Part shown: piece by piece, positions 17,646-50,130 of the stretch
Layout: every line of letters starts with the position of its first letter
Position numbering within the stretch: the first letter of the stretch is position 1
DNA from: an uncultured delta proteobacterium
GTDB taxonomy: Bacteria; Desulfobacterota; Binatia; JACPRU01
Direction: 5' to 3'
Length of the DNA stretch: 64,000 nt
NCBI GenBank assembly: GCA_963745025.1
Contig: CAVUWD010000008.1
Coordinates: 64,001-128,000 of the forward strand
The notes under the pieces: generated by a model
The model's database searches: none
What the model saw: only the letters and a program-made list of their open reading frames with translations
What the model was told of the DNA's origin: nothing
Program-made: the position numbers and the translations under genes

Positions 17646-17728
17646 AGGGGCGCAAAACCACTAACCCCCTGACTCCTCGACTCTTCCTCCACACTTTAAG
17701 GCTGGGAAGTCGAGGAACTTCGGACTAG
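17646..17728 (-). mobile_element. Solo left end of an IS1634-family element
   Basis: Reverse complement closely matches 50014-50096, ends GGAACTTCGGACTAG. Confidence 0.8.
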
Positions 17729-17829
17729 AAGTCCATCGCGAACGCGCTTTGGCCCAGCGCCAAGAGGATAAATCCGGCGATCACCGCCCGAGTTCCTATC
17801 GTCCGCGTCGTTTCGCTCCGGTTTCGGCT

Positions 17830-35771: not shown

Positions 35772-36036
35772 ACCCTATGGAACGACCTACCAAATCACCT
35801 CCGAATTACGTCGAACCAGTAGCACCCACGCTCACTCGAAATCCTCGTCCGTTGGCGGAGTTGGTTGTTCCTGGTTCGGCTCCGTCGGGTCCTGTAGAGA
35901 ATTCGTGATCAGCAGGGCGCGCCAACCTGAACGGGACTCCAAGTGGAGTTTGGACGCCGGCGTTCAAACTGGTGTTGAAACATGCTGAATCAAGCGGAAA
36001 CCGGCCGAGTTAACTTCGCGATTTCACGAGATGGCG

Positions 36037-36063
36037 ACGGGTTCGAATCCCGTCGGGGGGCCC
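36037..36063 (+). other. Degenerate tRNA 3'-end fragment (tRNA-Glu-like att scar)
   Basis: ACGGGTTCGAATCCCGTCGGGG T-arm with no 5' half. Confidence 0.55.
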
Positions 36064-36175
36064 AGCCTGCGTGTCGTCGCGCGGGGCCGTGGAGAGATCA
36101 GCTACATAAATGGGAGTCGTCATGCCGCGGTCTTGATCCGGCGGATCAAAAAGAAGCTCGGTGCGCAGACGTGTA

Positions 36176-36272
36176 AAATCCCGTCGGGGACGTGAACCCT
36201 CTCCGCAGGGCTGCCGCAACTAGGATACCACCTCTGCGGCAGCCAGCTCGACGACTTTCCCCGAACGCTGCC
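36176..36272 (+). repeat. 97-bp direct repeat copy 1 (tRNA-Glu-like end plus integrase 3' end)
   Basis: 9 mismatches by hand alignment to 45264-45360. Confidence 0.9.
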
Positions 36273-37428
36273 TTTGATCGTTCCTGAGGATGTCTCGAAG
36301 CCGCAGATCCCATCTCAGGAGAGCATCTTCCTTATCCGAGTCGTACGAGTGCCGGTCGTAGACGGCCGTGACGTCGCGCTCGGCATGATTCAGGATCTTG
36401 CCCACGACGAGCCTCGAGATGCCGATCCCTGTCATGTGGCTCGCCGCCGTGCGGCGCAGATCGTGGAAGCGAAACTCGATCCCCGTTCGCTGACGAAGGC
36501 GCCGCATCGGCTTTTGTAGGTTCGCAATGGGCTCCTCCTTGGAGCCCGGAAAAACGTACGCCGACCCCTCGGACTGTCCCCTGAGTCTTCGGAGAAGATC
36601 GAGGGCTTGCGGAACGAGCGGCACCCGATGCGACATCTTGTTCTTCGCGCGCTCAGCCGGGATAGTCCACCAGCCTGCGTCGAGATCGAGTTCATCCCAT
36701 CGCATCCCGAGCACTTCGCCTCGTCGCTGCGCCGTCAAAAGGGCGAGCTTCAGTGTAGCTGCGATCTGCAGGCGCTCGTGATCGAGCGCCCCCCATACCT
36801 GTCGGATCTCTTCCTCGGTCAGGACGCGGTCCCGCCGCCGCTCCTCACCCGAAATTGGTACGTTGTGGATGGGGTTGTATTCGACGACGCCCCGCTGAAT
36901 GCCGAAGTTGAAGATCTTGCTAGCGAGGGCACGGGTCCGGTTCGCCATGATCCCCGATCCGCGCCCCGCGATCTCGTCGAGCATTGCGATCACGTGCTTC
37001 CGCTTGATCTCGATCGCCTTCCAGTTCTTCCACCGCGGCAGCAGCTCCCGGTTCATCGTCCGCTCGTCTTCGCGCCAGCTCCTCTTCAGAACCTTGGCGT
37101 GCTTCTCGAGGTAGAGTTCAGCCAGCTGGCCGAAAGATTCCGCTCTTCGCTGAGCCTGCTTCTCTCCGGCGGGATCCGCGCCGTGAGCGGCGTCACGCAA
37201 TGCAGCTCGAGCGAGCCGGCGAGCGTCGGCAAGGCTGAGGGTAGGGTAGGCGCCGAGGGTCATTCTTCGGAGCCGGCCGTTGTGCCGATAGATTGTAACC
37301 CAGGACTTCTGTCCTGCCGCGGAGACGCGAAGGCCAAAGCCTGAAGCGTGGGTATCCCAGTAATCGATTTGCCCCTGGTGGGGCGGTTTGACGGAGTCGA
37401 CGAACAGCTTGGTCAGGGGGACGCGCAT
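36220..37428 (-). CDS. Tyrosine integrase, P4-like with arm-binding domain
   Basis: GFGLRVS...MTLGAYPTLSLADAR arm domain; catalytic LTAQRRGE, KNK, HDLRR, ILNH, VY. Confidence 0.95.
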   Translation of the reverse strand: MRVPLTKLFVDSVKPPHQGQIDYWDTHASGFGLRVSAAGQKSWVTIYRHNGRLRRMTLGAYPTLSLADARRLARAALRDAAHGADPAGEKQAQRRAESFGQLAELYLEKHAKVLKRSWREDERTMNRELLPRWKNWKAIEIKRKHVIAMLDEIAGRGSGIMANRTRALASKIFNFGIQRGVVEYNPIHNVPISGEERRRDRVLTEEEIRQVWGALDHERLQIAATLKLALLTAQRRGEVLGMRWDELDLDAGWWTIPAERAKNKMSHRVPLVPQALDLLRRLRGQSEGSAYVFPGSKEEPIANLQKPMRRLRQRTGIEFRFHDLRRTAASHMTGIGISRLVVGKILNHAERDVTAVYDRHSYDSDKEDALLRWDLRLRDILRNDQRQRSGKVVELAAAEVVS

Positions 37429-37459
37429 AGGATCTCCGAAGTCGTTGCCTGGCGTTTCC

Positions 37460-37478
37460 AGGTAACACATAGGTAACA
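37460..37478. promoter_or_regulatory. Putative integrase arm-type sites (AGGTAACA x2)
   Basis: Direct repeat with 11-bp period between integrase start and att core. Confidence 0.45.
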
Positions 37479-37607
37479 AAATCGCGAGGACTTTGCGGTG
37501 AGCTGCGAGCTGTCGTGAAACAAAAAACACTCAGTAATTCCATATGCTAGCAGGGAACAACCAGTTCAGGATGTTTCAGGAGAAGTCGTAATTATCCTGG
37601 GATCACA

Positions 37608-37652
37608 GATTCGTAATCAGCAGGTCGCCGGTTCGATTCCGGCGGGTGGCTC
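37608..37652 (+). other. att site: 3' half of tRNA-Thr(CGT)
   Basis: GA-TTCGTAA-TCAGC-AGGTC-GCCGG-TTCGATT-CCGGC-GGGTGGC-T; D arm and 5' acceptor strand absent. Confidence 0.85.
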
Positions 37653-38014
37653 TTTTATTCCAACTAGTTACGCGGTGCCTGCTCTCATCCGTGTGCCACA
37701 CGTGTGCCATTGGGTCTACCGAGGGAATCGCGAACGGAGCGGGTCGGCACGCTGTCGAGTTTCATTGGGGAGGCGCGGCGCCTCGGCCTCGGCGTGGGTA
37801 GCCCAGCCCATGGGCTGTGACGTGGCGACTAAAATTATCAAGCAGCTGCGGAATCGCGTTGCGCCCGCGCTATCCGGCGGCCCCTGCCGGATGACGCGCT
37901 AACGAGCGCTGGTCAGGTGCAGGGTTATTGAGGGATTGCAGCGGGGTGGGCGCGGTGTGGGGGAATCGATGCCACTTTATCGGGTGTGATAAACGATGGG
38001 TTCGGGCAGGGTGG

Positions 38015-38040
38015 ATTTGCAGGTCAATACGTAGTTGGGC
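38015..38040 (+). other. attI-like integron recombination site
   Basis: ...GTCAATACGTA-GTTGGGC core (GTTRRRY) with no attC hairpin before it; complementary to GCCCAAC of the downstream attC. Confidence 0.55.
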
Positions 38041-38153
38041 GGACGCACATCTGGAGGCGCTAGGCAGGAGGAGCGGCAAACGAGGACCGGTGATTGAGTA
38101 CAGATGCTCCTCACCCAACTGATGACAAGACGCTGTTTGCAGAGGTGATCGAG

Positions 38154-38843
38154 ATGGCGACGTTCGTTCTCGTCCACGGTGCGTTCGGCAGCCCCGCCGA
38201 GTTGGCGCCGGTGATTCCCTTGCTCGAGGCGCTCGGTCACCGTGCCATCGCCGTCGACCTGCCGTGCGCGGACCCGGCGGCGACACTTGACGACTACGCC
38301 CGGACGGTGGTCGAGGCGATGGCCGGGATCGAAGGGCCGGTCGTGGTCGTCGGCCATTCGGCGGGCGGCGCGACGATCTCGCTCGTGCCCGGCCGGACCC
38401 GCGTCGACCGCCTGGTCTACGTGACGGCGGTCGTTCCCGAGCCGGGGCGCTCGATCGCAGACGTCGTTGGCGCCGACGTTCGCGAGACGATGCTGTCGGT
38501 CTCACATGACGACGGCAACGGCTGCCGGTCGTTTGACCTGGAGATGCTGGCCTCGCTCGCGCCACCGGAGGAGCGGGAGGCGTATCTTGCCTTCCTCAGA
38601 GCCACGCAGCGCCCCCAGGGCTGGGCAGCGTTGGAACAGCCCTGGCCCGGCCGGTCACTTCCCGACGTGCCCCGCACCTACGTGCTCTGCACGGAGGACA
38701 AGATTATACCGCCCGCGAAACAGCGCGAGATGGCGGCGCGCCTGGGCGTGGAGCCCATCGAGATCGCCTCCGAACATGCGGTCTTCGCCCTCCAGCCCCG
38801 CGAGCTCGCCGCGGTGTTAGCGGCGCAGGGCCGATCCACGTGA
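38154..38843 (+). CDS. Alpha/beta hydrolase (esterase-like), gene cassette 1
   Basis: MATFVLVHGAF, GHSAGG nucleophile elbow, CTEDKII Asp, SEH His. Confidence 0.9.
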   Translation: MATFVLVHGAFGSPAELAPVIPLLEALGHRAIAVDLPCADPAATLDDYARTVVEAMAGIEGPVVVVGHSAGGATISLVPGRTRVDRLVYVTAVVPEPGRSIADVVGADVRETMLSVSHDDGNGCRSFDLEMLASLAPPEEREAYLAFLRATQRPQGWAALEQPWPGRSLPDVPRTYVLCTEDKIIPPAKQREMAARLGVEPIEIASEHAVFALQPRELAAVLAAQGRST

Positions 38844-38885
38844 GCTCCCAGGATTCGGAAGCTCAAGCACTGCACGTGAGGCGCT

Positions 38886-38946
38886 GCCCAACCCGGCGAT
38901 GCAGCGGACCGGTTTCGCCGGCCGCTGATCACCTAGGCCGTTAGAT
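38886..38946 (+). other. Integron attC site
   Basis: GCCCAAC (RYYYAAC) ... GATGCAGCGGACCGG-TTTCG-CCGGCCGCTGATC ... GTTAGAT (GTTRRRY), 61-bp imperfect hairpin. Confidence 0.85.
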
Positions 38947-39181
38947 GGCGCAAAGAAGAAGACTGATCGCCACGCTGCGATGGATTGTTGAACGGCTCGT
39001 AACGCTCGCCATCGCCGTTCCAATTCAGCTCGGCGCGTTGCTGGTCTGGGCGATTGTCGTGGGCAGGCTCCAAGACGCGGTGGCCGGTGTCCTCGGTCAT
39101 CCCGTTCTCGATCCTGACGACGAGTTCACAACGAGGGTCACTTTGCGAGCGGCGCCATCTCCTAAGAAACAACGACAGTAG
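38945..39181 (+). CDS. Small membrane hypothetical protein, gene cassette 2 (3' end altered by IS110)
   Basis: ATG overlaps the GTTAGATG core; one hydrophobic segment. Confidence 0.5.
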   Translation: MAQRRRLIATLRWIVERLVTLAIAVPIQLGALLVWAIVVGRLQDAVAGVLGHPVLDPDDEFTTRVTLRAAPSPKKQRQ

Positions 39182-40268
39182 GGGTTTGTAATTGCACGAG
39201 TTGGAAGCCGAGAGAGGCGGCGCGCTTGGAGAGAGAGCGGACGGTGCGCTCGCGGAATTTGAGTTCGTAGTAATCGATGCCGAGATCTTTGTAGGGTTGG
39301 CGGTGCTTCCACATTCGGTAGAAGATGCGCGAGAGCTTGTGGGCGGTGGCGGTGATGGCCTTGGGGGGCCCGAGTCGGGCGCGCATGCGGCGATGAAAGG
39401 CACCCAGAGCGGTGTGGCTGTTGCCGGCAGACTGAGCGGCTCGGCGTAAGGCAGTGGCCACACGGTTGGAGGCTTTTCGGGTCTTGGAGCTTTTCACTTC
39501 TCCTCCGGTGACACGGTTGTCGGGGCACAGCGCAAGCCAGGAGGCGAAGTGCTTCTCGGAGGGAAACTTCGAGGGATCGAGGCCGACCTCGGAAAGGATG
39601 GTCTGCACGGTGAGGGCATCGAACCCCGTGATGGCGGTGAAGTCGACGCCTGAGATTCGATAGAGGTGGGTGCGCAGGTCGAAGCCAGCCTCGTTGCGCT
39701 GGGGCTTGCGGTGGGTGGCCTTGGGTTGTCCCAGGGGCGTGAGAGCAGGGTCGACTTGGGTGTCGAAGCCGCCCAGGCATTGCTCGATCCGCAGGTCGCA
39801 GTCGGCAATCATGCTGCGGTAGGTGTCATAGAGCGAGAGGCATTGCTCAAGTGCGAAGAGGTGCTCGGGTCGGTAGTCGCCCTGGAGGGATTGGGCGATG
39901 CGCTCGGAGGTGCTCTTGATGCGATGATCGCGCATCGCGGCCAGAAGCTGTGGATCTCGCTCACCGGCGAGGATGGAGCGAATGATTCTCATGCCGCTGA
40001 CGCCGGTGATGTCACTGATGACCTTGTGAAGCTGGATGTTCATCTGGGTCAGGGCCTTCTGCATGCGCTGCACGTGAGCGGCCGCGTCGCGGATGAGAGT
40101 ATCGCGCTGGCGGATGTAGCTGCGCAGCACGCAGGTCTGATCGTCGGGACGAAACGATCCCGAGAGTAGACCAAAGGTGTGCAGCTGCTGGAGCCACTGG
40201 CAGTCCTGGATGTCGCTCTTTCTGCCGGGCAGGTTTTTGACGTGGCGGGCGTTGACGAGCTTGACCTC
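39162..40268 (-). pseudogene. IS110 transposase lacking its N-terminus
   Basis: EVKLVNARHVKNLPGRKSDIQDCQWL, VISDITGVSG, HFASWLALCP...TGG, KAITATAHKL; no start codon or first DEDD residues. Confidence 0.88.
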
Positions 40269-40483
40269 TCCTAAACGGGATAACCCTCCGTGCGAGGGAG
40301 GGCTTCACCAATGAAACAACCGCAAGCCCCCCGGAACCATGCTAACCCACGGGCGCGAAGGCACCATTGGCGCTACGGTCTTAGCTACCCGAGCACATCC
40401 CGGTGTACTCGACGCACACCGGCGCAGCAAAGACACTCAGGTTTCTTCCATCAACAACACCGCGCCTCGCGCGGGGTCAAATG
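40269..40483 (-). ncRNA. Putative IS110 bridge-RNA-encoding non-coding end
   Basis: About 215-bp non-coding end upstream of the transposase with hairpins, GTTAG (target+core match) and TTAGGAG (donor+core match). Confidence 0.5.
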
Positions 40484-40565
40484 CTAACAAGGCGCACAAC
40501 CTGCTCGCTGCGCGCTCCGCTCCGTTTCGCTTGCGGGCTCCGCGCGAGGGCGGCCTCGCGCGGAG
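40484..40565 (+). other. Remainder of second attC (right arm missing)
   Basis: CTAACAAGGCGCACAACCTG left arm, then GGCTCCGCGCGAGG/CCTCGCGCGGAGCC hairpin; no GTTRRRY follows. Confidence 0.6.
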
Positions 40566-40671
40566 CCGTCTGCCGGCCCATGAGCGGTGAGCCGGATGCT
40601 GCAAGGCCGAGCGATAGCCGCCCCGAGCGAGGTCGCAAGCGCCGTCGGCGCGCGCAGCCGAGCGTAGTCAA

Positions 40672-41334
40672 TCAGACGCGCCGCCGGCGGGCGCTCGCCT
40701 TGTACTGCGTGAAGCGCTCGGCGTCGCCGGGCCGGAGCGGGTCGCGCCCCGAGAGGAACAGCTCGAGATAGGCCAGGTCGTCGAAGCCCCAGAAGAGCTC
40801 CCCGTCGACCGCGAAGGTCGGCACGCCCCACACCCCGAGGCGCACCGCGGCGTCTGTCGCCTCGCGCAAACGGGCCTTCACCTGGTCGCCGGCGGCCTCC
40901 GCGACGAGCGCGTCGCCGTCCAGCCCGGCCACGCGCGCAGCCTGCGCCACGACCTTCGGATCGCTGATGTCCTGCGACTCCGCCCAGGCGGCGCGGAACA
41001 GCGCGTCGATCAGAAGGCGGCGCGGCTCGCCGGCGGGCGCGGCCCACGTCGCGCGCAGCGCGAGCAGCGGCGGGAACGGGTGCGTGGCCGGCGGCGCAAT
41101 CGGGATCCCGAGCAGCCGCGCCTTGCGCGCGACGTTCAGCATCATCCAGCGCGCCTTCGGCGCGACTTCCGCCGGCCCGAGCTGGCCGTGCGCGTTCAGG
41201 AGCCCCGCGAACAACACCGGCACCGGCTCGATCGCGCGCCCACAGCGCTCCGCGAGCGGGCCGAGCTGCACCCACGCCAGGTATGCATTGTGCGAGATGT
41301 AGTCGAAGTAGAACCGGATCGCTGAGCCGCTCAC
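40672..41334 (-). CDS. DsbA family / 2-hydroxychromene-2-carboxylate isomerase
   Basis: IRFYFDYISHNAYL, GVWGVPTFAVDGELFWGFD. Confidence 0.88.
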   Translation of the reverse strand: MSGSAIRFYFDYISHNAYLAWVQLGPLAERCGRAIEPVPVLFAGLLNAHGQLGPAEVAPKARWMMLNVARKARLLGIPIAPPATHPFPPLLALRATWAAPAGEPRRLLIDALFRAAWAESQDISDPKVVAQAARVAGLDGDALVAEAAGDQVKARLREATDAAVRLGVWGVPTFAVDGELFWGFDDLAYLELFLSGRDPLRPGDAERFTQYKASARRRRV

Positions 41335-42106
41335 GCGGCGAGTGTACCAGCTCGCAGCGGCTTGAGGTACGATCGGCGCGCGATGAAGTTCGTCTCCGCG
41401 CTCGGGGAGAGTGCGGCCGTCGGTGCGGCACTCGATCAGGTGATGCCCGAGATCGCGCCGAGGCCGCCCTTGAACAGCGCCTCGTCGGCCGCGCGCAGCA
41501 GCGCCTCGGGCGCGATCTCCGACAGACAGGTGAGCAGGCGCAGGAACAGGGCATAGGGTGTGGTCTCGTCCGCGTGCTGCACTACGCCCAGCACGCCGAC
41601 CGGCTCGGCGTCGATCATGTGGCCGACGTAGTCGAGGCCGTCGAGGCGCGCCAGCGGCTGGCCGGTGCTGCCCGAGACGGACAAGGGTCTTAGCCGGGCA
41701 GCGTCCAGGTGATCTCCCGGCCCTTCAGCTCGCGGTAGCGGCGCGCGTGCGCGCGTAAGCTCGCAGGATCTGACATGCCACGCGACAGCCAATCCCGATC
41801 GAGCCGCGCCGCAGCGTCGATTGCGGCCATTGTCGTCGCCTGCAGGGCGCGCTTCGCGAACGCGTAGGCCGGGTAGCAGTCTGGTGGCACGAGAGCAGAC
41901 CAGGTCACCGCGTCATCCAGTAGTCGGCCTGGCGCCGCCGTCTTGCCGACCACACCCATCTTCACGACCGCCGCGAGATCGTACGCCTGACCGAGCAGCG
42001 TCAGCTGCTTGCGTGGCCCGTGGAGCGTCGCCGGCGTCGTCCGCACGAAGGAGCTCTGACGGCCGCCCGTGTGGGGGATTGGGTGGAGACGATCGTCAAG
42101 AAGCGC

Positions 42107-42132
42107 GGCTTATGCCGAGCTCGGCATAAGCC
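42107..42132. repeat. Perfect 26-bp palindrome
   Basis: GGCTTATGCCGAG-CTCGGCATAAGCC. Confidence 0.85.
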
Positions 42133-42153
42133 TGGGCTAAGCGGGCAAAGCCT

Positions 42154-44907
42154 TCATGCCGTCGCCTCGGCTTCCGACCTTCCGCGGGCAAAATACGCAC
42201 CCTTTCCAGCCTCGAGCAGCTTTGTCGAATCGAGCATTCCGAAGAGCTGAATGAGATACGCTACCCCGCCCGTCCATCCCGTCTGGTGGCTCGCGCCCAG
42301 CCCCGCCCCGTTATCCCCGTGGAAGTACTCATAGAACAGGACGTGGTCGCGCCAGTGGGGGTCGGTCTGGAACTTCTCGTTTCCACCGTAGACGGCCCGC
42401 CGGCCACGCTCGTCGCGCAGGAAGATCCGCGTGAGCCGGTCGGAGATCTCCTTGGCGACCTCGAAGAGGTTCATCATCTTGCCTGAACCGGTCGGGCATT
42501 CGATCTTGAAGTTATCGCCGTAGTACGCGTAGAAGTTCCCGAGCGCCCTGAGAAGAATGATATTGACCGGCATCCAGACCGGCCCCCGCCAGTTGGAGTT
42601 GCCGCCGAACATGCCGGTATTTGATTCGGCCGGCAGATAGTCCACGCGGTACTCCTGGCCGCCCACGTGAAACACGTACGGGTGCTGCTCGTGGAACTTG
42701 GAGATCGAGCGGATGCCGTAGGGGCTCAGGAACTCGTTCTCATCGAGCATCTTGGAGAGGATCCGGCGCAGCCGCTCCGGGTTGACCAGGGCGAGAATCC
42801 CCCGCTCGGCCACGCCGAAATGCCCCGGGCCCGTGGGGTGGATGGACTCCAGGAGCTCGGGCATCTGGCGCAGGCGTGCATAAACCGCGGCCGCGGCCCG
42901 CGGGACGCGCTCGCGCTGCGCCTTCTCGACCACCGTCGTGGCGCACAGGGGCAGGAGCCCCACCATCGAGCGCACCTTGAGCCGCGTGGCGCTGCCGTCG
43001 GGGAGCCGCAAGAGGTCGTAGTAGAAGCCGTCCTCCTCATCCCACATGCCGTCCTGCCCGGGCTTGTTCATGGCCGCGGCGATAAAGGTGAAGTGCTCCA
43101 TGAACTTGACGACCATGTCCTCGTAGCTGGGGTCGTGGGCGGCGAGCTCCGTGGCGAGCTCGAGCATGCTCTGCGTGAAGAAGGCCATCCACGACGTGCC
43201 GTCCGCCTGCTCCAGATAGCCGCCGGTCGGCAGCGGGGCGCTCCGGTCGAAGACGCCGATGTTGTCGAGACCGAGGAAGCCGCCCTCGAAGACGTTCTTG
43301 CCGAACCGATCCTTGCGATTCACCCACCAGGTGAAGTTCAGCGCGAGCTTGTTGAAGGCGGACTTGAGGAACTCGATATCCGCCTCGCCGCGCAGGGCCA
43401 GCTCGGTGCGGTGGAGGACCAAGGTCGCAAAGGCGTGCACCGGGGGGTTCACGTCGCTGAAGTTCCACTCATAGGCGGGGATCTGGCCGCTGGGGTGGAG
43501 GTACATCCCGCCGAGCATCAGTTTGAGCTGCTGCTTGGCGAAGTCGGGGTCCACGATCCCGATCGGCAGCGTGTGGAAGGCGAGGTCCCAGGCCGCGTAC
43601 CAGGGGTACTCCCACTTGTCGGGCATGGAGATAATGTCGTCGTTGATCATGTGGAACCACTCCCGGTTCCGGAAGTCGCGGCTGCCGCGATGGAGGGGGT
43701 GGGCGTGGTGCTCCTCCAGCCACGCATTGCCGTCCCAGTAGTAGTACTGCTTAGACCAGAGCATGCCGGCGATGGCCTGGCGCATCACATTGGCGGCATC
43801 CGGGGAGACCGATGGCGGAGTCACCGACTCGTAGAACGCGTCAGCCTCCCGCAGGCGGGCGGCCACTGTCTCGTCGAAGTCTTTCCCGAAGGGGACGGCG
43901 CCCCCTTCTGTCGGCGTGCGCGACCCGGCCGGAGCCTGGGCGGTGAGACGCAGCCGCACCGTCGCCGAGCGGCCGGGGCCGATCTTCAGCCGGTAGTGCG
44001 CGGCGGCCTTGGTGCCGCGCCGCTCGGGATTCACCCTCTCGTGCTGACCCTGGACCACGTAGTCGCTGATGCCGTCCTTGAGGTACGGGCCCACGTCCGG
44101 GTAGTCGAGGTGGAGTTTGGCGTGGTTGGTCGAGTTCTCGGTAAAGAGCAGCGGCGCATCACCTTCGCAGTACAGGCAGTACGACCCCAGTACGGGATGG
44201 GTTGCCGCAATGGTACTCGCGCCTGCCCGTCCCTCGAGCTGATTGAGCATCGGCTTCTCGGCGGGGTGGGTGATCCACGACGCCCAGTCGTTGCGGAACC
44301 ACAGGGTCGGCAGCACGTGCAGCTCGGCCTCCTCCGGTCCCCGATTGGCTGCCGTGATCTGCACCAGGATGTCTTCTGGGCCCGCCTTGGCGTATTCCAC
44401 GAAGACATCAAAATACCGGTCCCGCTCGAAAACCCCGGTGTCGAGGAGCTCGTACTCCATCTCGTTGCGGCTGCGCCGCCGGTTCGTCTCCACCAGGTCG
44501 GCGTAGGGATACGGTGCCTGCGGGTACTTGTATAGGAATTTCATGTACGAGTGGGTCGGCGTGCTGTCGAGGTAGAAGTAGTACTCCTTGACGTCCTCGC
44601 CGTGGTTGCCTTCGCTGTTCGTGAGCCCGAAGAGCCGCTCCTTCAGGATCGGGTCTTTGCCGTTCCACAGGGCGAGGGCGAAGCAGAGGCGCTGCTTGTC
44701 GTCGGAGATCCCGCCCAGGCCGTCCTCGCCCCAGCGATACGCCCGGGAACGGGCGTGATCATGGGTGAAGAAGTTCCAGGCATCTCCGTTTGCGCTGTAA
44801 TCCTCGCGCACCGTCCCCCACTGCCGGTCCGAGAGATACGGTCCCCATTTCCGCCAGGGAACCTCCTTGGTGCGGGCTTCTTCCAGACGACCATGCTCGA
44901 CGTCCAC
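42154..44907 (-). CDS. GH63 / MGH1-like glucosidase
   Basis: [68 protein letters not shown]. Confidence 0.92.
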
Positions 44908-44974
44908 CTGTTGCCTCCTTCACTTCCCGACCTCTTGTCCTTCGTTCGTTTCCGCGCTCCGGGCGGACCGGGAA

Positions 44975-45002
44975 TAGGCCGTATTAGCTAGGCCGTATTA
45001 GC
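44975..45002 (+). repeat. Tandem 14-bp repeat TAGGCCGTATTAGC x2
   Basis: Read directly, upstream of GH63. Confidence 0.8.
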
Positions 45003-45255
45003 GCCCTCTAAGGCTCGACCACAAACGCGCAAAGCCCCACTGCTGCCCCGGAATGTCCCTTTTCTGCGGAGCACACAAGGCGCTTGTCAACCAGCTCGGG
45101 CTGAAGTGATGGTGTTCCTGTCGCCCCTAGCGCTGGGCACGTAGCGCGAGCCGCTGAGCGGCTATAGAAACGCCACCCGTGGCGTTTCCGGGGAGTTTTA
45201 AGGGCTTTCCGGAGCAGCCTAGACCGGAAATTCTGTTGGATTCTCGGAGACGACT

Positions 45256-45360
45256 ACGGGTTCAAATCCCGTCGGGGACGTGAACCATCTTCGCAGGGCT
45301 GCCGCAACTAGGATACCACCTCTGCGGTGGCCGGCTCGGCGACTTTCCCTGAGCGTTGCC
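45256..45360 (+). repeat. tRNA-Glu-like 3' end plus copy 2 of the 97-bp repeat (integrase 3' remnant)
   Basis: ACGGGTTCAAATCCCGTCGGGGACG followed by match to 36176-36272. Confidence 0.88.
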
Positions 45361-45362
45361 GC

Positions 45363-45623
45363 TCACCACACGCCACGTAACAGGCGCCAGGGTACCGCCT
45401 GCATATAGGCGCGATAGGCGTCCCCGCGCGCCGTAATGAGGCGGCCTTCCTCGATCGGGATGAAGAAGATGAACGTCGCGCCGATCATCAGGCTCCACAG
45501 AAGTTGGCCGAGATTACAGTGCAGGAAAAGAGTGCAGACGGCCGCGCCGGTGGCGGCCCGGTACATCGGGTGACGGACTTGGGCGTACTGTCCCTCGGTC
45601 AACAGAGGAGTCTGGCCTTCCAT
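45363..45623 (-). pseudogene. C-terminal fragment of isoprenylcysteine/phospholipid methyltransferase family protein
   Basis: LLTEGQYAQVRHPMY...IEEGRL...GDAYRAYMQAVPWR. Confidence 0.7.
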
Positions 45624-45991
45624 ACGGTCTCCTTGGCGCTGGCGGGGCTGTCTACATCCTCAACCGCGAACGCGTCCATCCGCTGAATATTCCGTTCACG
45701 GAGGCGATCAAGTCCATCTCCCGTTGGGGTTCGGGAGCGAAGGACCTGGTAGCCGCCATGGAGTCACCGAAAACTTGACGCTCTCTTCATCCTTGGACAA
45801 GTCGGAATTCTCCGCCGCCGTTATCCGCCGTGTCCTGGGAATGCTCAGCGCACCGAGGAACGATCCGTTCATATCCAGCGTTCGCCTGCCGACGAGGCCG
45901 ATCGCCGGCATCGGCAGCTGCCGCCCTCCCGTGGCGAGCGGCCAAGAAGCTGCCGCACCACCCAGCAAACGACAACTGCGACGTCTCAGAA

Positions 45992-47726
45992 CTATTTCCG
46001 ATCAAAATGCCACGAGCCATCCCAATCGGCGGCAAGCGGACTTTTCTCTAAGCTCTCGACCCGGCTCAATAGTGTCATCGAGGGCCCGTCGCCGGGGACG
46101 GCTTCGAGTGCCGCAGCAAAGGAGCGGCGCGCTTCATCCCAGCGACCCGCTCGATACGCGACAACACCCTCAGAATACCGAGTCCGCAACATACTTTCTT
46201 CCGGCCTTAGTTCCCCCTTTCGGCCCATGATCTCAAACACGACCTGCGGCCGCGTCTGGCCAACCACTACCACGCGATCAATTTCGCGCACCTCAATGGC
46301 TGTTCCGGCGGCAGCGATAGTGGCTTCCGAGACCAAGGATCGACTGCCGTATGCCTTGTTCGCCGTCTCGAGCCGCGCCGCGAGATTCACCGTGTCACCC
46401 ATGACGGTGTAGCTCATCATAAATTCCGAACCGATGCTGCCGACCAGCGCTTCGCCGGTGGCGATACCGATCCGAATGTCGCATTCTATGGGCATGGCAC
46501 GCACCCCCAGCAGTTCAGGCAGCTCCTTACGCAACGTCGCTACTCGATCAATCATGTCGATCGCGGCCAGACATGCGAAACGGGCCTGGTCTGTTTCTTC
46601 GATAAATGGGGCACCCCAGTATGCCATTATGGCATCACCAATGTACTTGTCGATGATGCCCCGATGATTGCGAATTGGTTCCGACATGGTCGCCAGGTAG
46701 CGGTTCATGACTTTGACGAGACCCTGTGGCGTCATGCCTTCGCTCAGGGCTGTGAACCCCTTCATGTCGCAGAACATAACGGTCATGATCCGACGCCGAC
46801 CCTCAGTGGCAGCCAACGCCGGCTGATCAATCAATCCTTCCACGACCCGCGGGTCGATGTATCTGCCGAAGGTTTCACGGATTCGCTCGTTGTGACGCAA
46901 TTGCTCGATCATGCGATTAAACGCCGTCGACAGTTGGCCTATCTCGTCCCGAGTGGTGACATCGATGGATCTACCTAGATGTCCGGCTTCGACGTCTCGT
47001 GTGCCCTCTAGCAAGCGCTGAACCGGACGGGTGATGCCACTGCTGACGAGTGTCGCGACAGCCAGCCCGACGATTGCAGCGAGTCGCTGTCACAATCGCA
47101 GAGATCACTATCGCGCGTCGCTGACCGCCCATCGCGGTCGAGGCGCTGGCAATGACCTGTTTCAGCATGTCAGCTCGGATCGTATCGATCTTCTGGTTGA
47201 ATTCGTCGCGAAGTGAATCTACTCGCGCGAGGCCCAGTCTGACTTCCGCGAAATCCCGCGCTTCGAGATGGGAAAGTAGTTGGGATATCTCTTGATTCAT
47301 ACGACGGCGGAGATCATTGCTTGCGGCATCGATTCGTGTCTCGATACGCGCCAGCGCAGCATTATCTGAGGGCGTGCTGACGTCATCGATGATCGCGATG
47401 ATGAGCTTACGCGCGGCCTCCGATTCCTGATCGATTTCGGGACCATTCTGTTCAAACATCTTCAGACGAGCGGCATAGTCTGTTTCATCTGGCGGAATCT
47501 GCATTTTGGCGATGACCATCCGGCGAAGCGCCAGGGCGCGTTCTAGTGACCGGACATTCATCCGTGCCAAATGACTATAGGCCGGGACGTATTTGGTCGT
47601 CAACTCATCGAGCAATTGACCGACTCTGGCCGCCATTAGCATCGACAGCGCCGACGTGATCACCATCAGAACGATCAGTCCAACGGCTATACTGACGATT
47701 TTCCTCTTGATTGATCGCCGGAACAT
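45992..47726 (-). CDS. HAMP-containing class III adenylate/guanylate cyclase (frameshift near 47085)
   Basis: TM, periplasmic helices, RDEIGQLSTAFN, VMFCDMKGFT, IDKYIGDAIMA, YTVMGDTVNLAARLE. Confidence 0.9.
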
Positions 47727-48564
47727 CAAAGGGCGCTCGTTGGCGTCATACGTCTCAGCTGAGGGGCGTCTGACCTGCCCGGCAAGGCGATGGCAGTATC
47801 GCAACCGTATGCGAGTGTGCAACGGAGTATAGTGTGGCTCTTGCCGTGTGGAAACTCGTGCATCGGGCTAGGGTAACGAGCGCAATCCGCCAAGGGACAT
47901 CCGGTCATAAGTTTCGAGCATTTTCGAGCTTCATCATGCTCAGTGCCACCAAGACGCGACAGAAGGACGCCTAAGAGCAACACGCCGCTCAGCGCCAATC
48001 GCCCCTTAAATATCATCGTCGTTGTGCCTCTTCCCGATGGCGATAGATCGGGACGCTCTCGGAGATTCGACTGTATTGGCGAGGCAACCGCACACTCAAT
48101 GGCTCGCCCCAGCGCATATCACCGATCTGTTCGTACAGGGAAACGCTCAACCGAGCGGGACGGCAAGAGCCGGTCACCGTAGAGCGATGCGGCGCACTCC
48201 TCGATTGTCTCGGGTTCGCCTGTGTGGAGTGAGCCCAGCGCACGACTCTTCTCGGATTCGAGTCCGGCGATGTGCGCGCTCGAATACTCAACAACGCCGC
48301 CGTTGCCGATCTCGATCGGCCCGTCGCCACTCCCTGTCGTCGGTCACCAGGCGCGACGGGCACTGGGAGGTCGCCGAAACGTCTCAGAAGGGGCGGGCTG
48401 TGCCCGAACTGTGCCAACCACGCGGGCTACTCGACCACGCGGTGTCCGTTTGCGGGGGCGTGGGCGACTTTGCTCCTGTGAATCCCTTCCTGCCCTGGAC
48501 GAACGCAGGCTCGGCGGCGAGTCGACACGATCGGGCCGACGAGACTAAATAGAAGCGCAGAGCG

Positions 48565-49290
48565 ATGCCGAACCTGTACAATCTCGGGGACCGCGCGACC
48601 AGCCGATCGCAACGAGCGCTGCAGGCCGTGCGCTCGCACGTGCAGCCGGGCTCGTTCCCGCTGCTCCTCGTTGCGGGCCTGCTCGCCTACATATTGAACG
48701 GGCTGGCGGCCGACTCGACCGCAAGTGCGATACTCGTGCAGGTCGGCCGCGCCGGTGTGATCTGCGCGGGCCTCTACGTGCTGAGCGCAAACCGCGTCAC
48801 GGTGTGGCTCGGGGTCTTAGTGACGGGGCTCTTCATCACGCTCCAAGCTCGGTTGTGGCCGCTCGATCCGCAGGTCAGGCGGGTGTTGGAGGATTCGGTC
48901 GCGATGGGCTTCGTCTTCTGGGTCCTCGTCGTCGTGCTTCGCGAGGTCTTCCGTTCCACCACGACGGAGAGGAACGCGATCGTCGGGGCGCTGTGCGGCT
49001 TCGTGCTCATCGTCTCGGTCTTCACGCGTCTGCACAGCCTGATCGAGGCGCTGTGGCCGGGCTCGTATCACACGGACGGTCCGCCGCTTTTGGAGCGCTC
49101 GGACATGATGCTGACCGCCGTCTTCCAGTACTTCAGCACCATCACCGTAACCACGGTCGGGTTCGGTGACATCGTTCCCGTCACGCCAGCCGCCAGGCTC
49201 GCGACGGGGCTGGAGGCGATCGTGGGTCAGCTCTACCTGGCGGTCGTGATCGCGACCCTCGTCGGGCGGGTCGCCGCTCGCCGAGACTGA
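48565..49290 (+). CDS. Potassium channel family protein
   Basis: YFSTITVTTVGFGDIVP selectivity filter, EAIVGQLYLAV. Confidence 0.88.
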   Translation: MPNLYNLGDRATSRSQRALQAVRSHVQPGSFPLLLVAGLLAYILNGLAADSTASAILVQVGRAGVICAGLYVLSANRVTVWLGVLVTGLFITLQARLWPLDPQVRRVLEDSVAMGFVFWVLVVVLREVFRSTTTERNAIVGALCGFVLIVSVFTRLHSLIEALWPGSYHTDGPPLLERSDMMLTAVFQYFSTITVTTVGFGDIVPVTPAARLATGLEAIVGQLYLAVVIATLVGRVAARRD

Positions 49291-49329
49291 CGTCACGCCG
49301 TGGCGTCGTTGTCACGCTGGGGCGACCCC

Positions 49330-49725
49330 CTGCTGTCCAAGACAGTTCTGAAGGGGTACGGCGTCCATCGTGATGTTCGGGATTTTTGGCGGACAGGAGC
49401 ACGAATGCGGCGGCCAGGCCCCCGGTCTGCTGTCCAGGATTCAGGCAAGGGCAGCTCTGCCTGAAGCGGCTCGGGAATCTCGGGCGGCGTCTCGAAGGGA
49501 CGATCCAGCCAGGACCACAGATCGCGGTGAACGAAGAGATTCATGCGCAACAGCGCCACGAGATTGGAGAGCGACCAGCCAAGCGCGATCGCAACTGCAG
49601 GAAGTGAAGGACGAGGATGGCGATCAGCGCCGTCCAGATCTGCACGCGAAGCGCATTCGGCGAGGTGCCGACGAAGGTTTTGATCTTGAGATTCTGCTTG
49701 AGCGCCTTGAAGAAGGGTTCGAAGC
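49330..49725 (-). mobile_element. IS4-family transposase 3' remnant
   Basis: FFKALKQNLKIKTFVGTSPNALRVQIWTALIA / LLRMNLFVHRDLWSWLDRPF. Confidence 0.8.
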
Positions 49726-49884
49726 GGCGCGTGCGCACACGGGTAGCCGCCGTGGCCGAGGATGATCTAGATCGACGGGGGCCAGACCGTACGTCGCGGC
49801 GGTCGCCACCGAGCTGCGCGCCATTGCCCCATAGGTACTTCTCCATCGCCGCTGCACCGCCGTCGGTGCCGGCGTCGGCGGCGT

Positions 49885-50017
49885 CGACGGCGGACACCGC
49901 GTGCTCGCTTCGCAGTTGCTCCATCCCTTCGCGGCTCGTCGGCGCCTCTCCGCGTGCCACGACCTTCCCATCCTCGTCTTCGATGACGAACACGCTCTGC
50001 TTGCTGTGAACGTCTAG
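49885..50017 (-). pseudogene. IS110-family transposase N-terminal remnant
   Basis: LDVHSKQSVFVIEDEDGKVVARGEAPTSREG. Confidence 0.65.
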
Positions 50018-50130
50018 TCAGAAGTTCCTCGACTTCCCAGTCTTGAAGTCTGGAGGAAGGGTCGAGGAGTCAGGGGGTTAGCGATTTTATGCCCCTGCAT
50101 TGTGTAGCCATGTAGATTCGTGTGTGTGGC

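Follow-up and report, generated by a model that had tools for sequence, protein, structure and literature searches.

A deletion derivative of an IS110-group insertion sequence whose candidate bridge RNA carries a guide matching the integron attC core

The element, its ends and its copies

The region analyzed was a 64,000-nt stretch (the window) of the genome assembly GCA_963745025.1, which derives from an uncultured delta proteobacterium (Desulfobacterota; Binatia); it spans positions 64,001 to 128,000 of contig CAVUWD010000008.1. The assembly comprises 5.65 Mb at 64% GC, with a completeness of 92.65%. The window holds a 1,323-bp insertion sequence (IS) of the IS110 family on the minus strand, at positions 39161 to 40483. 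Read on that strand, the element begins CATTTGACC and finishes TTTCTTAGG, and it is bounded on both sides by the core dinucleotide AG (CT on the plus strand). The left copy of the core (40484 to 40485) follows the left target CCTTGTT, and the right copy (39159 to 39160) is followed by the right target ATGGCGCC. The bounding of the element by CT at these two places had been proposed in an earlier reading of the same DNA, referred to here as the original prediction. It was confirmed in the sequence, and the ends were fixed independently by four other copies of the element in the genome.

These copies were obtained by searching the genome with the 1,323 bases and are all longer. They lie at C16:890226-891914, C12:72179-73867 (C12a), C8:156014-157702 (C8b), and C12:115258-116950 (C12b) and measure 1,689 bp, with the exception of C12b at 1,693 bp. 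Nucleotides 1-217 and 216-1323 of the window copy showed 100% identity to C16, C12a, and C8b and 98% identity to C12b. The five copies have identical ends, since the similarity halts at exactly the same bases in each, always in the order GTT-AG, IS, AG. The AG core is present at both sides of all five, with no longer target duplication. A sixth copy is a fragment (C20:1-~257) that corresponds to element nt 125 to about 381 at the start of its contig and is followed by unrelated sequence.

In the intact element, a 275-nt 5' non-coding region with a Shine-Dalgarno sequence (AAGGAGG) precedes a 470-codon open reading frame (ORF; nt 276-1685). The stop codon TAG occupies nt 1686-1688 of 1,689, which places it 1 nt from the right end. 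The presence of 275 nt before the ATG and of 1 nt past the stop codon supports the earlier assignment to the IS110 family with the non-coding region upstream of the transposase. The transposase contains the Pfam domains DEDD_Tnp_IS110 and Transposase_20, and the protein of a full copy scored 276 bits against the NCBIfam model NF033542, "IS110 family RNA-guided transposase" (cut-off, 140). Its sole match in the Protein Data Bank was the IS621 transposase, which is distant (E 2e-4). No sub-terminal inverted repeats were found above background; the best pair, 10/12 at unequal distances from the ends, was no better than those of shuffled ends.

The window copy as a deletion derivative

Comparison of the copies showed that the window copy is an internal-deletion derivative of the 1,689-bp element. 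What had been described as a 215-bp non-coding end is in fact the first 217 nt of the 275-nt region, joined to transposase codon 103 by a deletion of 366 bp (by subtraction, 1,689 - 1,323). The junction lies at 40265 to 40268 on the minus strand, where the missing bases run from nt 216/218 to nt 581/583 of the full element across a 2-nt GA microhomology. The deletion took away the 3' end of the non-coding region together with the ribosome-binding site, and it removed transposase codons 1-102, where the first Asp and the Glu motifs of the DEDD domain reside. Of the predicted RNA described below, two helices, the outer one and the one that closes the donor module, have lost their 3' strands. The transposase remnant (39162 to 40264, minus strand) consists of codons 104-470 and the stop codon TAG at 39164-39162; it has no start and no first half of the DEDD domain, matching PF01548 at profile positions 74-154 only, plus PF02371. 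With neither a start codon nor a ribosome-binding site, without its first 102 codons, and with the closing strands gone from two RNA helices, the window copy cannot act alone. It is a defective, non-autonomous deletion derivative and should be annotated as such rather than as an intact IS; its movement would need recombinase and RNA supplied by intact copies. A deletion made by the recombinase itself was considered and ruled out, as the microhomology at the junction is GA and not the in-register AG core.

At least half of the queried words were contained in 19 sequencing runs from 16 studies, where they presumably represent the IS itself, and contigs were examined for four of these runs. The full-length form of the IS was present on contigs of three other runs. 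None of the contigs of the four runs spans the window flanks or the deletion junction, and no circle joints were seen among them.

Guide segments in the non-coding region

Relatives of the transposase were gathered at 80 loci, with one genome per species, and at a further 80 loci on metagenome contigs; guide covariation was assessed over 15 aligned lineages and about 90 loci. Six groups had multiple copies per genome, and in these the element ends were fixed by comparing copy with copy, with no use of an RNA model. The non-coding regions of all six groups have a common scaffold, ...CA-N-TGGTG...CCCG-N8-CATGG...CATTGGTGA...CCCG-N8-ATT, and in each group the first N8 was found to correspond to the bases left of the insertion plus AG. 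This segment was designated the left-target guide (LTG). In the element studied here, the LTG is TGGGTTAG (element nt 135-142; 40342 to 40349, minus strand). The corresponding guides were ATTGTTAG in a Binatia metagenome-assembled genome with three TTGTT-AG sites, TCGTTTAG in Wolbachia (sites TCGTTT-AG and near variants), TTTGCGAG in a Desulfobacterales/Pirellulales group (sites TCATTGCG-AG), TCTTTCAG in Acidobacteriota (sites CCCTTTC-AG), and GTACAAAG in Dehalococcoidia (sites TTGTACAA-AG). In sense, the LTG agrees with the left target and core, so that its pairing partner would be the bottom strand.

Overall, the first N8 tracks the 6 nt left of the core through at least 18 guide variants. 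The scaffold was located at 52 loci (18 variants of the first N8), 47 of which had an AG/CA candidate at the expected distance; five had no candidate, and three fitted poorly. For the 47 loci, the cognate LTG matched at 4.66/6 positions, compared to 1.73/6 for the guides of other lineages in the same search. In the 15-lineage alignment, RNA nt 136-140 equaled target positions -6 to -2 in 93-100% of lineages. The scaffold was also present in 44 of the 80 metagenome loci, where 39 matched at 5/6 positions or better, three matched lower, and two had no candidate, these counts being given with no non-cognate control.

The second N8 was designated the left-donor guide (LDG). It is TTTAGGAG in the present element (nt 209-216; 40268 to 40275, minus strand), matching the right end ..TTCTTAGG plus the core AG. 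Three variants were found to match right ends that had been set by copy comparison: TTTAGGAG (or GTTAGGAG) with ..TTCTTAGG-AG, CTTAGGAG with ..TTCCTTAGG-AG, and TTTGAAAG with ..GTTAGTTGAA-AG. A further five, ATTAGAAG, TTCGATAG, TTCGGTAG, TTCGGGAG, and GAGAGAAG, match ends near the stop codon. The ends for these five were located by the guide itself and are supported by an invariant GTT, 12 nt from the end, that is common to all of them. The two LDG columns that were sufficiently variable in the 15-lineage alignment equaled the donor in 100%.

The original prediction had noted GTTAG (40346-40342) and TTAGGAG (40274-40268) on the minus strand as possible guides of a bridge RNA. Both are present and sit where the relatives covary with target and donor, and both N8 segments change with target and donor across the 15 lineages, which is the behavior to be expected of bridge-RNA guides. 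From these alignments, GTTAG is assigned as the 3' part of the LTG and TTAGGAG as the LDG, and the covariation confirms the reading of both matches as guides. The present LTG, TGGGTTAG, compares with ATTGTTAG or ATTGGTAG in the 77-81% relatives.

Two other lineages are of note for their guides. A 57% relative occurs in many copies in Wolbachia wCon and wStri (loci L024-L033) with the guide TCGTTTAG. In the lineage with the guide TTTGCGAG (L036, L039-L041, L138, L157, L159, and L163), the insertions lie in a palindromic repeat, GTCATTGCGAG...GCAATC, and this is another guide that targets a repeat.

Predicted RNA structure and right-side guides

RNAalifold analysis of the 15 lineages gave, in the numbering of the present element, an outer helix of nt 91-95 with 242-246, which is longer in the single-sequence fold. 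Within it, a helix of nt 104-108 with 145-149 closes the target module, in which a small hairpin precedes CCCG-LTG, and a helix of about nt 151-156 with 234-238 closes the donor module. A hairpin of nt 174-184 with 198-208 lies directly 5' of the LDG in the donor module (hairpin D; 40276 to 40310, minus strand), with compensatory changes in 7 of its 10 pairs. Over the 31 predicted pairs, 91.2% of the cells were paired, compared to 40-50% when the partner was slid by 1 to 3 columns, and both sides had changed in a compensatory manner in 17 of the 31. When compared to 500 shuffles, four of five measures were never as high (0/500) and the fifth, the number of pairs changed on both sides, was as high once (1/500). 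A further helix between the two CA-N-UGG motifs was dropped, as the variable middle base, judged by eye, changes in at least eight lineages with no change of its partner. An Rfam scan of positions 36000-44000 (E ≤ 1) returned a weak, unrelated hairpin only. No sigma-70-like promoter was found by scanning the non-coding region, a result that is uninformative for this organism.

A candidate right-target guide, GUAGCGCC, was located on the 5' side of the target module (nt 108-115; 40369 to 40376, minus strand). The C that closes this segment does not vary and would be the partner of the core G. When complementarity to the core G plus right flank was scored for 42 distinct sites and 20 guides, the cognate match was 2.33/5 and the non-cognate match 1.23/5, and none of 5,000 permutations of the lineage labels gave a value as high. 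The signal comes mainly from Wolbachia, where GAAGATT was predicted and GAAGATT, GCAGATT, and GTAGATT were observed, and from Acidobacteriota. The Wolbachia wCon/wStri relative has the clearest right-flank consensus, AG-AAGATT, which matches the candidate right-target guide. If this assignment is right, the distal hairpin would be preceded by the top-strand guide and followed by the bottom-strand guide.

Insertion sites and the attC-type palindrome family

The five insertion sites conform to a common pattern, ...(T/G)GTT-AG, IS, AG-.... The left flanks are CCTTGTT, CGGGGTT, TTAGGTT, CCGTGTT, and ACAGGTT, while the right flanks (ATGGCG, TTGACA, GTTGGG, GCCGCT, and CGTTCC) are unrelated. GTTAG is rare in the host genome, with 819 occurrences on both strands of the 5.65 Mb.

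The left flanks of C12a and C8b are alike, and a search with them recovered imperfect palindromes of ~95 nt with bulged bases, starting with ..CTAAC and ending with ..GTTAG. This family has five full members in the host genome (two on C12 and one each on C6, C4, and C8) and about six partial matches. In two of the five full members, the IS sits exactly at the GTTAG end, these being the C12a and C8b copies. Two insertions elsewhere also fall at the GTTAG end of such sites. In another wetland run (X3), a contig ends in a family member, ...GGTCCGCTCCAACCGTTGTTAG, right at the left end of the IS; and in the case of an 81% relative (L108, guide ATTGTTAG), the insertion falls where a family-like site (E 0.026) ends, the alignment stopping between GTTAG and CATTT.

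The family was taken as attC because a member lies near a true integron integrase (IntI) in a row of palindromes and because members occur in short cassette arrays. IntI was detected in two of seven other genomes of the same family (439 and 470 bits; cut-off, 265). In one of these, a member of the palindrome family (55 bits) lies about 750 bp past the 3' end of the 470-bit intI, within a row of CTAAC...GTTAG palindromes that is present on that side only. In G004:C248 (L099, L101), from a same-family genome, the attC row lies past the 3' end of intI and not upstream of its 5' end, a layout that suggests an "inverted" integron, and a DDE transposase fragment occurs among the cassettes. In the host genome itself, C6:422031-423976 (L188 1532-3477) holds an array in which attC-type sites, at least three in number, are spaced at 500-850 bp; the array carries a toxin-antitoxin cassette (brnT-brnA) and a cupin-like ORF, and no integrase was detected at it. 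On C12, two family members flank a brnT gene and a small ORF. We take the palindromes, as defined by our own profile, to be the attC sites of cassette arrays with no integrase nearby. As to which attC end is hit, R'' or R', the orientation of the brnTA cassette gives opposite answers in C12 and C6.

The target site in the window and its surroundings

Excision of 39161-40485 restores GGCGCCAT-CT-AACAAGGCG, which contains the box GGCGCCATCTAACAAGGCG. The box reads ATCTAAC on the plus strand and GTTAGAT on the minus strand, a perfect attC core (RYYYAAC / GTTRRRY). Its left part occupies 39152 to 39160 and, when restored as GCGCCATCT-AAC, is the 12-nt complement of 38940-38951: GTTAGATGGCGC at those positions reverse-complements 12 nt of the restored site without mismatch, and this 12-mer is unique in the 5.65-Mb genome. 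The original prediction, which had quoted 8 nt of complementarity to the start of cassette 2, was therefore true over 12 nt. The opening bases of a cassette and the first box of the attC that belongs to it would be expected to be complementary in this way. An attC-type site at 38868 to 38946 (GCCCAAC...GTTAGAT on the plus strand and ATCTAAC...GTTGGGC on the minus strand) folds like attC and is homologous to the attC that follows the brnTA cassette on C6, with 90% identity over 31 nt and the same R boxes. The target box lies 207 bp from this site, which has the 12-nt complement of the box at its end. The restored site would fit the ATTGTTAG guide of the relatives at 7/8 positions.

Past the box, the next features are a terminator-like hairpin and then a DsbA-like gene on the other strand. 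The hairpin is a perfect 14-bp GC-rich structure, GGCTCCGCGCGAGG/CCTCGCGCGGAGCC (40545-40578), downstream of the DsbA-like gene (40672-41334, minus strand), and is probably the terminator of that gene. An empty target site was not found in relatives, where the DsbA-like gene alone is conserved (65-68% identity) and the intergenic target is not.

Elsewhere in the window, a 436-amino-acid (aa) tyrosine recombinase is encoded at 36220-37530 on the minus strand (Arm-DNA-bind_3, Phage_int_M, and Phage_integrase); it is of the P4 type, not IntI, and its gene is divergent from a hydrolase gene and the attC-like site. A tRNA was not detected anywhere in the window. A 69-nt inverted repeat of 93% identity, at ~17661-17729 (minus strand) and 50013-50081 (plus strand), 32 kb apart, encloses the integrase, the cassettes, and the IS. 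Its right unit recurs exactly over 100 nt at C8:129432-129531 and, at 92%, at C8:81661 and C19:77194. These repeats may be the ends of a larger mobile unit.

Interpretation and alternative explanations

We propose, with a probability of roughly 0.85, that the window holds a defective copy of an IS110-group IS whose bridge RNA carries a guide set to the GTTAG core of attC. The non-coding region would encode this RNA, in which a long closing helix surrounds two modules of similar build. The donor module would use the 8 nt that follow the second CCCG (TTTAGGAG) as a guide to the right end of the element itself. A shorter guide on the 5' side of the target module would probably pair, right of the core, with the top strand. 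By recombination at the AG core, the element would be inserted and AG left on both sides. Because the guide reads (G)GGTTAG, insertion would occur at the GTTAG core of attC and at other GTTAG sites. By analogy with IS621 and ISEc21, the RNA is expected to be made, to bind the recombinase, and to direct strand exchange.

Several observations weigh against this proposal, beginning with the window site itself. No second attC arm was found at the box on either strand, neither in the fold of the restored site nor as GTTAG or CTAAC within 40489-50076, and the attC-family profile gave a best score of 0.4 bits on the restored site, which is noise. The site also fits the element's own LTG at only 5/8 positions (GTTAG). 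The earlier claim that the element had inserted exactly in an attC core thus stands for the box, which resembles an attC core and lies close to a genuine attC, but not for a full attC, as the second half is missing. We read the sequence as an attC-core box, perhaps a remnant, beside a real attC. The deletion of the window copy is known from this assembly only, and in the RNA run X20 a single 151-nt contig (40052-40201) falls within the transposase gene, which is evidence neither way on expression.

Other sites speak against a strict attC specialist. The C16 site does not belong to the attC family, C12b lacks its left flank (10 nt of flank), and the C8b insertion also cuts off the end of a 409-aa antiporter-like ORF. 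The three sites of the Binatia relative are palindromes of GGTTGTTAG/CTAACAACC units with no match to the attC-family profile. Outside the IS copies, some 74 GGGTTAG sites stand empty, and one of them is the C4 attC member with a 7/8 guide match. The attC calls were made with our own palindrome-family profile plus context rather than IntegronFinder. No integron integrase was found in the host genome, the best score being 74 bits against a cut-off of 265, at the completeness of 92.65%. As for the right-side guides, the four assessed sites of the element fit the right-target candidate at 0-2/5 positions. Looking through the donor module on its 5' side and the stretch past the LDG did not reveal a right-donor guide, and a scan of 4-nt diagonals along the 14 nt that open the left end reached at best 0.53 identity and 0.62 complement.

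The original prediction of an element programmed against the attC R box is upheld insofar as the guide matches the GTTAG core and two of five copies and two other insertions lie in the attC-type family, but not for C16 or with regard to an IntI in the genome. For the lineage, attC targeting is supported; for the window locus, the support is partial.

The alternative that survives best is that the element inserts at any (G/T)GTTAG and recognizes neither attC structure nor context, the link to attC arising from the identity of GTTAG with the attC core consensus and from its scarcity elsewhere. This is possible but was considered clearly the less probable explanation. It would account for the fact that the five sites have only (T/G)GTT-AG in common, with differing right flanks, for a C16 site outside the family, and for a window site that is not a full attC; the genome offers 819 GTTAG, and the same scaffold is set to unrelated targets in relatives, e.g., TCATTGCG-AG and AACCCTGAA-AG. 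However, only about 5 of the 819 GTTAG are in full family members, and two of five copies would be found there by random choice with a probability of about 4e-4. The two further insertions elsewhere in the same attC-type family also argue against it, as do the ~74 better-matching GGGTTAG sites that are empty. From these empty sites, together with the 5/8 match at the window site, it was concluded that a guide match alone is insufficient to explain the choice of site.

It is very improbable that the element belongs to the published IS1111-attC group (ISPa21, ISPst6, and ISKpn4 type). A DEDD transposase element at one end of attC would suit that group, and NCBIfam and Pfam place the protein in the wider IS110 family, but the layout already refutes this placement, as the long non-coding region precedes the gene and a single nucleotide follows the stop codon; in addition, sub-terminal inverted repeats are not above background, and the transposase has 470 aa, compared to 330-350 aa as given for IS1111 (PMC11187229). 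Least credible of all is that the 5- to 7-nt matches are chance and that the protein alone chooses the target, for although matches of this length are expected by arithmetic about once between a 275-nt region and a 30-nt junction on two strands, and no Rfam family matches here, the same alignment columns shift with target and donor across at least 18 guide variants.

A broader and distinctly tentative extension of the bridge-RNA proposal is that a clade of ~470-aa IS110-group elements, in Wolbachia, Acidobacteriota, Dehalococcoidia, and Binatia, uses a bridge RNA of two tandem homologous modules (an N7-C-A-N-UGGUG hairpin, then CCCG-N8), with a guide order the reverse of that of IS621 and no need of a separate right-donor guide. 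One lineage would have been retargeted onto the attC core by three base changes (ATTGTTAG to TGGGTTAG), in convergence with the IS1111-attC elements, and a preference for attC that goes past the 5- to 7-nt match would stem from recognition of attC context or fold.

If the proposed guide setting is correct, then setting to the integron attC core arose in an IS110-type branch as well as in IS1111, which suggests that cassette recombination sites are a recurrent safe harbor for RNA-guided insertion sequences. The family alignment also constitutes a natural guide-to-target table, with at least 18 left-target and 8 left-donor guides, for a large-recombinase clade very distant from IS621, and could help in the comparison of bridge recombinase architectures.

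Comparison with known systems

For IS621 and ISEc21, it is established that a bridge RNA or seekRNA acts through target and donor guides and a 2-nt core. Bridge RNAs of varied structure have been predicted in 85.7% of IS110s in the account of Durrant et al. (2024, PMC11208160). As far as IS621 is described there, the present element resembles it in its DEDD plus Transposase_20 recombinase and in a long non-coding left end, upstream of the gene, that encodes separate target and donor modules. Further likenesses are the 8-nt guides, which include the 2-nt core and have the sense of the left target and left donor, the core at both junctions, and the lack of long sub-terminal repeats. The recombinase differs in size, having 470 aa compared to 328 aa for IS621 (the chain of structures 8wt6-8wt9; E 2e-4), and the core is AG here and CT in IS621. 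The order of the bottom- and top-strand guides in IS621, as reported in that account, is the opposite of that deduced here, where the bottom-strand guide lies 3' of the distal hairpin in both modules and the candidate top-strand guide lies 5'. No right-donor guide was found in the present element.

ISEc21, an IS110-type element, also has its non-coding region upstream, where it is reported to be required for movement (PMC11187229). A guide retargeted in nature through a few base substitutions, as described in the same report for ISMch6, has a counterpart here in TGGGTTAG compared to ATTGTTAG/ATTGGTAG. Transposases of the ISEc21 cluster are given as 345-385 aa, compared to 470 aa, and the match order appears reversed here, as the bottom-strand match is described as 5' of the top-strand match in that cluster (PMC11187229).

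Insertion guided by a seekRNA at one attC end has been reported for the IS1111-type elements ISKpn4, ISPst6, and ISPa25 (Siddiquee et al. 2024, PMC11187229), and these share with the present element a DEDD transposase with an RNA guide, putative here, and, for two of its five copies, a position at one end of attC-type sites. According to that report, IS1111 seekRNAs carry the top-strand guide 5' and the bottom-strand guide 3', an order as in the present element. The RNA of those elements is, however, downstream of the transposase gene, in contrast to the upstream region found here; they have sub-terminal inverted repeats of 7-17 bp, which in the present element were not found above background; and their transposases are listed at 330-350 aa, compared to 470 aa (PMC11187229). 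In layout, repeats, and size, the element therefore agrees with the IS110 group and departs from IS1111. With the RNA upstream, no such repeats, and 470 aa, the setting of the guide to the attC core is deduced to be independent, that is, convergent. No report of an IS110-type element set to attC was found in the literature searched, although the supplements of PMC11208160 and PMC11187229 may list the clade. RNA-guided targeting of attC has itself already been published for the IS1111 seekRNA in PMC11187229, and as judged from the description given there, what is new in the present element is the IS110-type layout.

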